Part shown: piece after piece, positions 505 to 4,841 of the stretch | Position numbering within the stretch: the first letter of the stretch is position 1 | How the letters are laid out: the number at the start of each line of letters is the position of its first letter | Assembly (NCBI GenBank): GCA_024275415.1 | Contig: JAJRZD010000035.1 | Span: 32,886-64,885 of the forward strand | DNA from: an archaeon | Lineage (GTDB): Archaea; Asgardarchaeota; Thorarchaeia; Thorarchaeales; Thorarchaeaceae | Length of the DNA stretch: 32,000 nt | Direction: 5' to 3' | The notes under the pieces: model-generated | Seen by the model: the letters and a program-made list of their open reading frames with translations, nothing else | Databases searched by the model: none | Told to the model about the DNA's origin: nothing | Program-made: the position numbers and the translations under genes

Positions 505-1491
505 TCACAGACGACTCAGTATTTGGAGGATGTTCCCAAAATTATGTTCGATTGCTCTTGATTTCTCTGCATATGACTTGAGATATCTTAATCTTTCATC
601 GACTTGAGCCTTTTCAAGAAAATCTTTTGATCTGATCATCTCGTGAATCTTCTCGTTAAGTTTCAAAATCTCTGTCGAGGATTCGAGTACATGCTTCAGC
701 ATCCGTATGAGGAGATGAAAGTCATTGATGTCCCTCAGCTGTAGGGTCTGGCTGTAAAATTGGAACTCAAGTCTGGCAAGCTTTTCTCTCATTTTCACCA
801 AGTCAATCAACCACTTATCCTCATCTGAAGCCTCCAACTGGTGATGCAATTTTCTCCATTTCTGTTGCTGATCGAGAAGCTGGACGAGATATTCGCGAAG
901 AAAGGAGAAATGATCCACGCCCTTGTCAACATCTTCTTCCGTGCCAATTGATGTCATCAACTCGTCCATCTGACTTAGTTTGACTGCTATCATCAATGAG
1001 AACTTGTCTACATACCTTTTGACTTCGTCTGTCTTTTCCTTCCTTGTCATGAGGTCTGCAAAGGTATCTGCCAGAGTCAGGATGAACTTGTAAAGGCATT
1101 CGCTGCATATTTCAGCACTCTCATCGCTCTTGGTAGATAGAAACTGTAATGCGTCCTCTAGATCGTTGCCTGGCACATCTTTTCCATGTATTTTCAAAGT
1201 CCAGCCTTGTGAGATACAATAGACCTTGTTGTCGGGATAATTGATGTAAATTGATGCATAGCAGACATTCTCATCCTGAGCAAGTTCCTGCGCTATGCTC
1301 TCCTTATCCTTGTGTATGGCAAAAATGGATGGATCTATCTCCATGACTTCGACTTCAAGGATGTCATCGTTGTTCACACAGAGTCTTTCATCTCCAAATA
1401 CTTTGAAACACGGACATCCCTTTACAACGCGTATCGCACTCTGTTCCAATTCACTGCCGCGTCCGAGAACATCCATTCTGTAGTACACCAT
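505..1491 (-). CDS. Hypothetical protein with 7-Cys N-terminal domain and helical/coiled-coil C-terminus (paralog 1)
   Basis: 328-aa ORF. Cys pattern CPC-x9-C...C-x14-C...CxxC is shared with the adjacent ORF. An AGAGG SD-like sequence lies upstream. Confidence 0.85.
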   Translation of the reverse strand: MVYYRMDVLGRGSELEQSAIRVVKGCPCFKVFGDERLCVNNDDILEVEVMEIDPSIFAIHKDKESIAQELAQDENVCYASIYINYPDNKVYCISQGWTLKIHGKDVPGNDLEDALQFLSTKSDESAEICSECLYKFILTLADTFADLMTRKEKTDEVKRYVDKFSLMIAVKLSQMDELMTSIGTEEDVDKGVDHFSFLREYLVQLLDQQQKWRKLHHQLEASDEDKWLIDLVKMREKLARLEFQFYSQTLQLRDINDFHLLIRMLKHVLESSTEILKLNEKIHEMIRSKDFLEKAQVDERLRYLKSYAEKSRAIEHNFGNILQILSRL

Positions 1492-1558
1492 CTTTAGAGT
1501 TTCAATATCCTCTATGATAAATCAGTACTCCATGCCCAACTCTTTGTTATAGGGCTTT

Positions 1559-2512
1559 TCATTCTGCCCTCACTTCGATTTTTGATAGGAGTGGCATCAG
1601 TTTTCGAAAGGACTTCTCCGACTTTTGCCGCTGCTGTTCTGTTTTTACCAGAACAGACTCTTCGGATTGCGTGAGAGAGCATGCATCCGTTACATAGAGT
1701 TTGAGGTCTCTCAACTCATCATGGAGTGATAGGATTTTCCGTGTTGTCCCTATCATCAATCGGAGGTGGATTAGAGAGGAACCTTCGTTCTCCCTACGAT
1801 TGAGGGCATGAACCTGATGCATGAACACAATCTCTAGCTTCTGGAGGTTCTGGTATGTATGCAGAAGGTTATGTATCTCCTCATCTTGTCGGTTCGATAA
1901 GATATTGATCTCCTCGTAACGTCTTGCTGTATTATCACGGGTCGGAAGGCTGAACTCATGGATGCCATTCACTCTTGTTGTTCTCTCCGTTTCAGCACCT
2001 TGGTTGAGATCAGACGCTATGCGATTGACAAGATTTCGTGCATAGACATCAATCACCATCTCCTTCTCCTCGTCACTGACCAAATCACCAAAGACATCCG
2101 TCAGAGTAAGTAGGTACTTGTAGAGACACGAAGAACAAACAACGTCGTCACTACCCATCCCGGACAGCACCACATAGTCCAACGCGTTCCTGATGTCCTC
2201 TGCCTTGATATCATTTTGATTCAATGTGATAGATTGTCCCTGACTAATACAGTGTGCATTGCCATCTCGAGGATCCAGATTCAGTAACCCGTAACAAAGG
2301 GTTTCTTTTGTACTCTCGAATTCCCTCAAATCCTCAACAGAAGACAACTGTGCAAAGAACTGAGGGTCTAGTGTGATGGGTTTGATGGGTGTAATCTCAT
2401 CATTGTTGATGCAGATACGTTCATCGCCGTACTCCTTCAAGCAAGGACATCCCCTTACTATCTGGATGCGATTATCATGTCTGCCTCCAATGATTGGTCC
2501 ATCCGACAGCAT
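1559..2512 (-). CDS. Hypothetical protein with 7-Cys N-terminal domain and helical/coiled-coil C-terminus (paralog 2)
   Basis: The ORF track starts at GTG 2593. ATG 2512 (MLSDG...) gives an N-terminus of similar length to paralog 1. Same Cys spacing as 505..1491. Confidence 0.85.
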   Translation of the reverse strand: MLSDGPIIGGRHDNRIQIVRGCPCLKEYGDERICINNDEITPIKPITLDPQFFAQLSSVEDLREFESTKETLCYGLLNLDPRDGNAHCISQGQSITLNQNDIKAEDIRNALDYVVLSGMGSDDVVCSSCLYKYLLTLTDVFGDLVSDEEKEMVIDVYARNLVNRIASDLNQGAETERTTRVNGIHEFSLPTRDNTARRYEEINILSNRQDEEIHNLLHTYQNLQKLEIVFMHQVHALNRRENEGSSLIHLRLMIGTTRKILSLHDELRDLKLYVTDACSLTQSEESVLVKTEQQRQKSEKSFRKLMPLLSKIEVRAE

Positions 2513-2622
2513 CCCTATGACCTTGTGTTCTTCATTGTGCCTTCTAACCCTAGATTGCGTGCTGGCACAAAGGGCAATCCGATTGAATTCCACATTAAGG
2601 TATCTTGGACGAACACTTCAGG

Positions 2623-2646
2623 GGAGCCACCTTTGAGGGTAGCTCC
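2623..2646 (-). terminator. Stem-loop directly after the RHH stop codon (terminator or processing site candidate)
   Basis: Minus strand GGAGCTACC-CTCAAA-GGTGGCTCC forms a 9-bp stem with one G-U pair. No U-tract follows. Confidence 0.35.
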
Positions 2647-2786
2647 TATCCCCAAAGCTCCCGCTTTAGCAGGTCTCGTATCGCAATCCTGATCGCTTCG
2701 GATCGGTTCGGGTACAAATTGCTTTCAACAAGCTTCTCAAGACCGTCAATATACGTTTCTGGGACATGAAGAGTCACGAGCTTCAT
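2646..2786 (-). CDS. Ribbon-helix-helix transcription factor, CdrS/aCcr1-like
   Basis: 46 aa MKLVTLHVPETYIDGLEKLVESNLYPNRSEAIRIAIRDLLKRELWG has the 'YPNRSEAIR.AIRDLL' signature. SD-like GGAGATGA precedes ATG 2786; the ORF-track start at 2855 is probably too long. Confidence 0.85.
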   Translation of the reverse strand: MKLVTLHVPETYIDGLEKLVESNLYPNRSEAIRIAIRDLLKRELWG

Positions 2787-3157
2787 CAAATCATCTCCAA
2801 CATATCTCTCTCGACTGATGAGCAATATCTCATCATCCAACGTGGTATGCACCACACGGGTATGTGCATCTTACTGCGATATGACTGTGTGTATTACTCA
2901 CTCGGCATTTGGAGTATGACGTTGTTTAGAACGAGATGGTGGTGAGAAGGAGCCAATAGCTCCTACTCTTCTGCGAATGGAACCCACGTTCGCCGGGAGA
3001 GAAGAAGTGCGCTCCAACTCCATGCAAGACACATTACCATAAGTCACCTTGTGTATGTAGCCTAATACTCTCCCATTATTCACATACAACCCGGATAACA
3101 TTCTCGTTTTGACAAAAGGTTCATATGCTTACAAATTGATTCTCTCTTAGATTTCGT

Positions 3158-4067: not shown

Positions 4068-4841
4068 ATGGCATCAGATGTTGAGTCCTCTGGTAAAGCC
4101 GAGGATACGCCAAAGGTAGCTCAGGAGCTACAGACCCTGAAATGGATCAGGGAACGGCGTTCTATCCGAGAATTTACCGGAGAGAAGATACCCGATGAGC
4201 ATATCGAAACAATACTTGAGGCTGCTCGGCATGCTCCAAGCCCTGAGAATATGCTCATGATTAGATTCATCGTTATCCGCGATGATCAGGAAACCAAGGA
4301 GTTCCTCGCAGACATCGCGCAGGAGATGGCTCAGACCGCTTTTGGAGGTGCTCCTTTCGAACTCACGAGCGGACGGAACTGGTTCATCTCTGACCCATAC
4401 CGTGCTGCTGTCTATGCACGACTACGGGATGGTGAGCTTTTCCGATATCCTGAGAAAAGCGACACGGTCATCATCGTTTGTGCAAGCGACTCTTGGCATG
4501 ATGCGGGATACATGTATCCCAATGAGCTCTTTGGCTCTGTTGTTGCCGGGATGGCTGTACAAAACATGTGGCTCACAGCAACAGAACTTGGCTATGGTTG
4601 TGGTTACGAGGCTCTCGTCTGTTCAGACCCACGACATGCCGAGCTGATACGTGACAGGCTTGGGATACCCCCAATCTGGCTTCCGCTCACAGCCTTCTGC
4701 ATTGGTCAGAGAGTTTCACCAAGGGCACTTGGGCCTAGCAGAGCACCACTGGAAGGCCTGATGTATGAGGAGCGCTGGGGCAAGCCATACACGCGATTAG
4801 CTTTCAGGGAGGATGAGTTAAGCGATGGAATTGACATTTGA
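4068..4841 (+). CDS. Nitroreductase family (FMN-binding) protein
   Basis: Motifs IRERRSIREF, ILEAARHAPSPEN and GMAVQNMWLTATELGYG. Confidence 0.9.
   Translation: MASDVESSGKAEDTPKVAQELQTLKWIRERRSIREFTGEKIPDEHIETILEAARHAPSPENMLMIRFIVIRDDQETKEFLADIAQEMAQTAFGGAPFELTSGRNWFISDPYRAAVYARLRDGELFRYPEKSDTVIIVCASDSWHDAGYMYPNELFGSVVAGMAVQNMWLTATELGYGCGYEALVCSDPRHAELIRDRLGIPPIWLPLTAFCIGQRVSPRALGPSRAPLEGLMYEERWGKPYTRLAFREDELSDGIDI

Follow-up and report, generated by a model that had tools for sequence, protein, structure and literature searches.

What does a small regulator of the CdrS type do ahead of two proteins of unknown family? The question is raised by a 32,000-nucleotide stretch of DNA (positions 32,886 to 64,885 of contig JAJRZD010000035.1, assembly GCA_024275415.1; hereafter the window) from an archaeon of the Thorarchaeaceae, a family of Asgard archaea. 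Between positions 505 and 2786 of the window, three co-oriented genes on the minus strand follow one another in the order RHH-B, paralog 2 and paralog 1, RHH-B encoding a ribbon-helix-helix (RHH) protein:

2646..2786, minus strand: RHH-B gene, a ribbon-helix-helix protein of 46 amino acids (aa); Pfam RHH_1, E 2e-8, residues 4-42
1559..2512, minus strand: paralog 2 gene, 317 aa; N-terminal 7-Cys domain and C-terminal helical bundle
505..1476, minus strand: paralog 1 gene, 323 aa; same architecture as paralog 2

These gene coordinates confirm what the initial annotation of the window had described, namely a 46-aa RHH directly upstream of, and co-oriented with, two paralogs with seven cysteines. 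That annotation had gone on to read the paralogs as standing in the place of the division genes ftsZ or cdv, and it is this second step that the rest of the genome calls into question.

We propose, as the probable reading and with some reserve, that the locus consists of two linked, separately promoted units of a module specific to Thorarchaeia, in which RHH-B is part of the ftsZ network and the paralogs serve as signalling or adaptor proteins. The first unit would be RHH-B, an RHH transcription factor of the NikR/CdrS/aCcr1 type and one of four ancient CdrS-like paralogs, whose most likely mode of binding is that of a dimer of dimers, on GTAWTAC and TATGAC half-sites 16 bp apart. The putative half-sites flank a CATAT element in RHH-B's own promoter and in the promoter of RHH-A and ftsZ, and RHH-B would thereby come under auto- and cross-regulation in the very network that governs the two ftsZ genes. 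The second unit would be the paralog pair, with a transcription factor B recognition element (BRE)/TATA-like element of its own, in which an Asgard-only domain with six or seven cysteines is joined to a predicted helical bundle.

Searching the organism's own genome with the CdrS model (NCBIfam NF058555) yielded three RHH copies besides the window gene. The genome holds four CdrS-like paralog classes, A to D, the window gene being class B; the other three are:

contig C23, 9700-9876: class A RHH, with a 4-nucleotide ATGA overlap with the start of ftsZ (this ftsZ passes TIGR00065 with 418 bits)
contig C20: class C RHH, ahead of a gene whose product has an acidic linker after a basic N-terminus
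contig C127: class D RHH, ahead of an FtsX-like membrane protein and a LolD/FtsE-type ATPase

The same genome also carries a second ftsZ (contig C123), SepF, two ESCRT-III genes and a third gene of the tubulin family. As the canonical RHH-ftsZ arrangement and the other division genes are found elsewhere, the division-gene slot has not been vacated, and the earlier view that the RHH sits ahead of the paralogs "instead of ftsZ/cdv" was wrong: RHH-B is an extra paralog and not a displaced CdrS. In ten other genera of the family the gene after the RHH is constant for each class, and the classes come out as separate clades (supports 98/93 for A, 92/84 for B, 95/83 for C and 96/88 for D), with similar supports when outgroups are added (84/84 for RHH-B); the ftsZ-linked RHHs of other Asgard lineages branch off in a basal part of the tree that is not resolved. 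RHH-B has about 80-100% identity between family members, and it ends without the C-terminal tail that the other three classes have. With the ftsZ-linked class A protein of its own genome it shares 63% identity over 46 residues, the C-terminal helix being near letter-for-letter the same. The genes preceded by the class C and class D RHHs are without an evident division role.

The partners of classes C and D are worth recording in their own right. The class C partner (contig C20, 69273-70231, with orthologs at loci L056-L092) is a protein of 195-230 aa in which a basic N-terminus of the MxxRRIFGRKKK type is joined through a long acidic linker to a conserved C-terminal domain of about 130 aa; it matches no Pfam or NCBIfam family, and ESM Atlas gives only Asgard hypothetical clusters, with a weak SCP2 lead of 0.78. 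At the class D locus (contig C127, 52112-53589), the RHH gene precedes those of a 170-aa membrane protein with a weak match to the FtsX C-terminal family (E 0.0034) and of the LolD/FtsE-type ABC ATPase, and a gene for a Rab/Arf-like small GTPase lies divergently upstream.

How close RHH-B stands to the described regulators can be read from its family scores. Among NCBIfam families it matches CdrS NF058555 best (50.8 bits, E 1.2e-13, model positions 1-41 of 61), with a score below the curated cut-off of 100 bits for this equivalog, and on the aCcr1 equivalog NF053762 it scores 21.1 bits, below the cut-off of 60 bits. When 2.3 Gb of phage and archaeal-virus records were searched by tblastn, the only matches to RHH-B were SMV3 gp63 (44% identity) and SIRV10 ORF15, which score 69.2 and 64.9 bits on the aCcr1 model, both above its cut-off; SMV3 is one virus whose aCcr1 homolog was tested (PMC9976878). 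The matches among plasmid records were mostly haloarchaeal RHHs, with 59-67 bits on the CdrS model. In a search for homologous proteins, the best 120 entries were Asgard proteins without exception. In the outgroup tree, which is unrooted and comprises only the Asgard RHHs, three haloarchaeal plasmid RHHs, two viral aCcr1 proteins and two others, the viral aCcr1 proteins group together with strong support (99/95) and are set apart from every other sequence. In fold RHH-B is of the CdrS type, whose members are ribbon-helix-helix proteins of about 50-60 aa, and it can be aligned with the RHH domain of NikR, its closest solved relative by sequence (PDB 2bj1, 1q5v; E 1e-3). It is not adjacent to ftsZ, the CdrS-type placement upstream of ftsZ being that of the class A RHH instead. 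The earlier assignment of the gene to the CdrS/aCcr1 clade thus stands in part: the best family match is CdrS and the virus matches pass the aCcr1 model, whereas RHH-B itself reaches neither curated cut-off. We call RHH-B CdrS-like chiefly because it is about 63% identical to the ftsZ-linked RHH of its own genome, with a nearly shared C-terminal helix. Judged by sequence it belongs to the CdrS/aCcr1-like group, and shared promoter elements would wire it to the ftsZ loci.

These elements lie in the promoter and leader of RHH-B:

2891..2920, minus strand: composite operator-like element, GTCATAC-N16-GTAATAC on the strand of the gene; candidate site
2787..2890, minus strand: rest of the RHH-B promoter and leader, with the CATAT element, further half-site-like boxes and a hairpin at about 2813-2838
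about 2792-2799, minus strand: Shine-Dalgarno-like GGAGATGA of RHH-B, from an alignment of 11 genera

The RHH-B promoter is conserved at the nucleotide level across the 11 aligned genera, in the order GTAWTAC, CATAT, a GTATGAC box 16 nucleotides past the heptamer and a further GTGAWTACC box; the arms of the leader hairpin vary between genomes with the pairing kept (judged by eye). The composite GTAWTAC-N16-NTATGAC occurs at exactly two sites in the 3.5-Mb genome, the RHH-B promoter and the RHH-A/ftsZ promoter (C23:9647), and it is found in 8 of the 11 RHH-B promoters of other genera with sufficient upstream sequence. Exact copies of the heptamer GTAWTAC are distributed as follows:

whole genome: 240 in 3.5 Mb, 58 of them intergenic
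RHH-B promoters: 11 of 11
lone (second) ftsZ promoters: 21 of 23, at -61 to -87, then GTAGTATT 5 nucleotides later
class A promoters: 5 of 9, the remaining four having ATAATAC
class C promoters: 4 of 9
class D promoters: 1 of 9
paralog-2 promoters: 0 of 18

The published aCcr1-box, A(T/G)G(A)TA(G)A(T/G)TACN, holds this heptamer as its core, and its authors have noted its likeness to the core of the CdrS motif (PMC9976878). From the conservation of these sequences we infer that RHH-B binds the box and controls its own gene.

The heptamer also turns up at other places in the genome. At C43:1400-16200 (locus L132) there are nine intergenic copies, mostly as GTAWTACAnGTAWTA(C) doublets, among genes that include HypF, a 2-oxoacid:ferredoxin oxidoreductase-like gene and a CoA-binding protein, an arrangement suggestive of closely packed operators. 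A single GTATTAC box is found about 70-100 nucleotides upstream of each of two further genes: an SMC gene (C120:12977, with GTCATAC 5 nucleotides later) and a gene for a 473-aa AAA+ protein of the Mg-chelatase/MCM-like kind (C108:2283). A putative PRC-barrel gene beside a GTAATAC box at C123:68856 was dropped, its product having no Pfam match at 1e-3.

Is the paralog pair transcribed together with RHH-B? Two further features separate the genes:

2623..2646, minus strand: stem-loop that begins in the RHH-B stop codon, with a 9-bp stem and a 6-nucleotide loop; -16.4 kcal/mol, z -3.2
2594..2608, minus strand: BRE/TATA-like element CCAAGATACCTTAAT, 14 nucleotides past the hairpin stem and ahead of paralog 2

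The hairpin, which the initial annotation took as reason to hold co-transcription uncertain, is real. Of 18 lineages, 10 carry a stable hairpin at this position; their stem sequences differ, and RNAalifold gives 10 consensus pairs, six of them with compensatory change. The element CCAAGATACCTTAAT, of which the genome has a single copy, is conserved between the two genes in most relatives, both in its sequence and in its place, and resembles the BRE/TATA-like CGAAGGGATTATATC of the RHH-D promoters. As a hairpin follows the RHH stop codon and a promoter-like element precedes paralog 2, co-transcription is doubtful, and paralog 2 would appear to have its own promoter. The hairpin is more likely the 3' end of a transcript or a stabilising structure; an operator for RHH-B was considered at this place and rejected, as the stem differs among genomes in which RHH-B is 98-100% identical. 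A palindromic reading of the element ahead of paralog 2 (AAGATANCTT) was also tried, and it pointed to no regulon, its full form being unique and its short form not enriched in promoters.

The linkage of RHH-B with the pair can be followed across relatives. RHH-B lies upstream of and co-oriented with the paralogs at 17 loci in full and at one in part among the 18 assessable loci of the family, a count that includes two genera with a single paralog and several with a tandem RHH-B duplicate; at the single-paralog loci (L027, L029) the RHH gene still stands directly before the remaining paralog. The locus is core, single-copy and syntenic in 23 of 24 family genomes, and RHH-B and a full-length paralog co-occur in 24 genomes at the level of the order. 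One genome (G015, 93% complete) is without RHH-B and without any paralog and has retained classes A, C and D. The linkage, which the initial annotation had wanted traced through related genomes, therefore holds at these family loci but not in the sister family, nor in one genus. We infer a functional tie between RHH-B and the pair; since related genomes are not independent of each other, their co-occurrence is only suggestive of coupling. In several genera RHH-B is present as tandem duplicates ahead of the paralog pair (loci L040, L043, L044, L046, L049-L051 and L053), the copies being about 80-91% identical to the RHH-B of the window.

With 27% identity over 312 aa (E 1e-36) the two proteins are true paralogs, paralog 1 being the slow-evolving copy (59-77% identity to orthologs) and paralog 2 the fast-evolving one (26-52%). 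Among 43 family sequences, five of the seven cysteines are invariant and the GCPC pair is kept in at least 90%; with stand-alone homologs included, six cysteines are invariant and C23 is kept in at least 90%. The six invariant cysteines suggest metal binding, and from its sequence the domain is probably metal-binding. Neither paralog has a Pfam, NCBIfam or PADLOC match. The AlphaFold2 model of paralog 1 (43 sequences; mean predicted local distance difference test score, pLDDT, of 82) has a beta-rich domain at about residues 12-115 and helices from 121 to 322; the conserved cysteines are placed in the beta-rich domain and in a helix bearing CxxC (124-127), and the C-terminal half forms a bundle of helices of 25-30 residues. 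The "coiled-coil-like halves" of the initial annotation are not borne out by the model, which predicts a compact helical bundle and not an extended coiled coil. Searched with VIA-align wide, the bundle (residues 133-323) resembles only generic four-helix bundles, with Z of at most 10.1, the chance level for helical bundles being a Z of about 13. For the whole of paralog 1, Foldseek against the Protein Data Bank (PDB) returned nothing at E <= 0.001, the shape search of ESM Atlas gave template modelling (TM) scores of at most 0.30, and its feature search gave a best score of 0.81, below the useful level. Folded alone, the Cys domain reaches a pLDDT of 81.7; it has no Foldseek match in the PDB at E <= 0.001, a best VIA-align wide Z of 5.7, on helices 101-144 only, and ESM Atlas TM scores of at most 0.38. 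A predicted complex of paralogs 1 and 2 scored 0.00 without controls, a value that has no bearing either way on a heterodimer.

The Cys domain is rare and seems to be an Asgard possession. A profile search found it in only 77 clusters among 1.84 billion representatives, and in the ten clusters that were looked up the named members are all Thorarchaeota, Heimdallarchaeota or 'Asgard group', the others being metagenome records. Besides the paralogs, the domain occurs as a stand-alone protein of 110-160 aa, C-terminal to Arf-family GTPases in Heimdallarchaeota (Arf E 1e-43 and 4e-37), after a multi-pass hydrophobic domain of 230 aa (judged by eye), and elsewhere ahead of GAF-PAS. In view of these Arf, membrane and GAF-PAS contexts we read it as a signalling or regulatory module or an adaptor, not as an enzyme or a filament.

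Three neighbourhoods of the domain may be noted. On three near-identical contigs of one Heimdallarchaeota lineage (L133-L135), the gene for an Arf-Cys fusion has NurA on one side and a family B DNA polymerase on the other, the three genes being co-oriented. At L115 (G005:C10:59352-65723) a stand-alone Cys-domain gene is convergent with a cluster of a small GTPase and three Roadblock/LC7-like proteins (by eye), and at L127 (G001:C289:87-4862) an open frame, longer than 1590 aa and truncated by the contig end, holds a Cys-domain-like stretch with 27% identity over about 160 aa.

The gene starts on which these comparisons depend were set by alignment with relatives. The paralog starts follow from a comparison of 43 orthologous sequences: the relatives of paralog 1 begin at MDVLG, and for paralog 2 a start at GTG 2593 was discarded, the relatives favouring ATG 2512 instead. 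The 46-aa start of RHH-B is backed by a conserved GGTGA/GGAGA Shine-Dalgarno-like element and by conservation of the non-coding type farther upstream, and the database versions of its homologs with 60-69 aa are probably over-extended. On the other side of the pair, at 3-491 on the plus strand of the window, a gene for a CxxCxxCC protein (PF03692), a putative Zn/Fe chelator, is convergent with paralog 1; it has retained this place at 21 of 22 related loci and also in G025, from the sister family, and is a steadier neighbour of the paralogs than the RHH.

Several observations weigh against our proposal of two linked units. In the RHH-A and RHH-B promoters GTAWTAC stands at a possible TATA position and may be a TATA variant and not an operator, and the arrays in the unrelated C43 locus raise the thought that another factor may read the heptamer. 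The CdrS model is not specific in the range of scores concerned, since 39 bits, a score within the range of 35-50 bits, is also reached by the RHH of a MazF-linked antitoxin from Thermococcus. As the GTAWTAC box is absent from the paralog-2 promoter in 18 of 18 genomes, there is no direct regulatory link from RHH-B to the pair. The linkage is broken in G013, in which RHH-B (98% identical) stands alone and the paralog lies elsewhere, and in G025, the sole genome of the sister family, in which RHH-B precedes two small membrane genes and the paralog remains beside the CxxCxxCC gene. Finally, the whole neighbourhood is syntenic: of 22 loci, 21 have the CxxCxxCC gene and 15 have, on the upstream side, the gene at 4068-4841. 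For this reason the adjacency of RHH-B and the paralogs may be inherited and not selected. The conserved flanks, the separate promoters with a hairpin between them, the lack of a box ahead of the pair and the loss of linkage in two genomes in which both partners persist are together what would be seen if the RHH and the paralogs were neighbours merely through little rearrangement of the region, with no functional coupling. We nevertheless hold this to be improbable, as both partners are absent together from G015, which has kept the other three classes, both are confined to the same order, and the RHH gene stands directly before whichever paralog remains at L027 and L029.

The reading of the initial annotation, which sees in the paralogs a division or cell-cycle module not yet described, placed under a CdrS-type regulator where ftsZ or cdvA would otherwise stand, draws on the close paralogy of RHH-B with the ftsZ-linked RHH, on an element that the RHH-B and RHH-A/ftsZ promoters have in common and that is unique in the genome, with its core upstream of both ftsZ genes, and on the co-occurrence and co-absence of RHH-B and the pair. 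We think it unlikely, if not without appeal: the canonical RHH-ftsZ, the second ftsZ, SepF and ESCRT-III are all elsewhere, the paralog promoter is without the box, a hairpin and a promoter-like element stand between RHH-B and paralog 2, and the predicted Cys domain and compact bundle bear no likeness to filament or ring proteins; moreover, the RHHs of classes C and D precede genes with no evident division role, and in G025 RHH-B itself precedes different genes. A cell-division role of the pair is possible, its only ties to division being neighbourhood and co-occurrence, and the position of RHH-B and the pair beside each other is a lead for such a role, not evidence of one. A more specific idea is that the Cys domain of the paralogs senses a metal or the redox state and acts in trans on the tail-less RHH-B, much as the C-terminal domain of NikR does in cis. 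That NikR has the closest solved RHH domain, that RHH-B is the sole class of the four without a tail, that the paralogs have six or seven conserved cysteines and that the half-sites lie 16 bp apart, as in the E. coli NikR operator, would all fit such a split sensor; yet the Cys domain matches no known metal-sensor fold (Foldseek against the PDB, VIA-align wide, ESM Atlas) and RHH-B is 98% identical in G013, where it has no adjacent paralog, and we would give the idea very little chance. Hardly any credence is due to a toxin-antitoxin or defence cassette, a reading prompted by public records that label close homologs 'ParD family antitoxin' and by a weak ParD match (TIGR02606, 15 bits, E 0.019). 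None of the three proteins has a PADLOC match and no toxin or defence family is found among the neighbours (Pfam, NCBIfam, PADLOC); the single-copy core locus, syntenic in 23 of 24 family genomes, is not mobile or patchy, the paralogs are proteins of about 320 aa with no toxin-like domain and with a separate promoter, and the RHH is kept without the pair in G013.

If RHH-B and the pair do form two linked, separately promoted units, the locus offers an entry into a poorly charted field. Asgard genomes carry FtsZ, ESCRT-III and novel tubulins, and how these archaea divide and time their cell cycle is largely unknown; to our knowledge, no Asgard regulator of division or of the cell cycle has been characterised. 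Our results show that Thorarchaeia have expanded the CdrS-type regulator into four conserved classes, that two of these share a promoter element unique in the genome, the core of which is conserved upstream of both ftsZ genes, and that one class travels with a Cys domain confined to Asgard archaea, which in Heimdallarchaeota is found fused to Arf GTPases. An Asgard division circuit, and with it a new protein domain, could thus be put to a first test with reagents already at hand: the 46-aa protein, the 30-bp site and the 140-aa domain. One may go further and imagine that RHH-B and the Cys proteins are the Asgard branch of the CdrS/aCcr1 cell-cycle circuit, with the Cys domain as a metal- or redox-dependent adaptor between small-GTPase-type signalling and FtsZ division. 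We regard this extension as speculative and rather improbable; if true, it would link small-GTPase-type signalling to FtsZ division in close archaeal relatives of eukaryotes.

Among known systems, the cdrS-ftsZ2 locus of Halobacteria and other archaea, in which the RHH gene lies directly upstream of ftsZ2 and is co-transcribed with it (PMC7439475), is the natural point of comparison. RHH-B and CdrS have in common a small RHH with an NRSEAIR helix. A paralog of RHH-B in the present genome is coupled to ftsZ in the published arrangement, and a symmetric motif lies upstream of the other ftsZ, comparable to CdrS in Haloferax, which binds upstream of ftsZ1 (PMC7439475, PMC8406309). Unlike CdrS, RHH-B lies away from ftsZ and is without the C-terminal extension; it belongs to a set of four paralog classes, and the two proteins encoded after it, which fall in no known family, have a promoter-like element to themselves. 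The aCcr1 proteins of Sulfolobales and their viruses (PMC9976878, PMC9976892) are like RHH-B in size (about 46-58 aa), and the heptamer GTAATAC of their published 9-bp box is invariant in the RHH-B promoter. Here the locus has no cdvA target, and whereas aCcr1 boxes are described between the TATA element and the start, the box in the lone-ftsZ promoters lies farther upstream, at -61 to -87 from the start codon.

For the pair, the nearest relatives are the fusions of an Arf GTPase with the Cys domain in Heimdallarchaeota (for example NCBI MCE7744972.1), with which the paralogs share the Cys domain at profile E-values of 1e-7 to 5e-16. In these fusions the domain follows the GTPase instead of preceding a helical bundle, and the gene has no RHH neighbour. 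NikR, lastly, differs from RHH-B in that RHH-B ends at 46 aa, right after the RHH, without the C-terminal nickel-binding (ACT-like) domain. The half-sites of the E. coli NikR operator are spaced by 16 bp, the same spacing as in the composite element of the RHH-B promoter.

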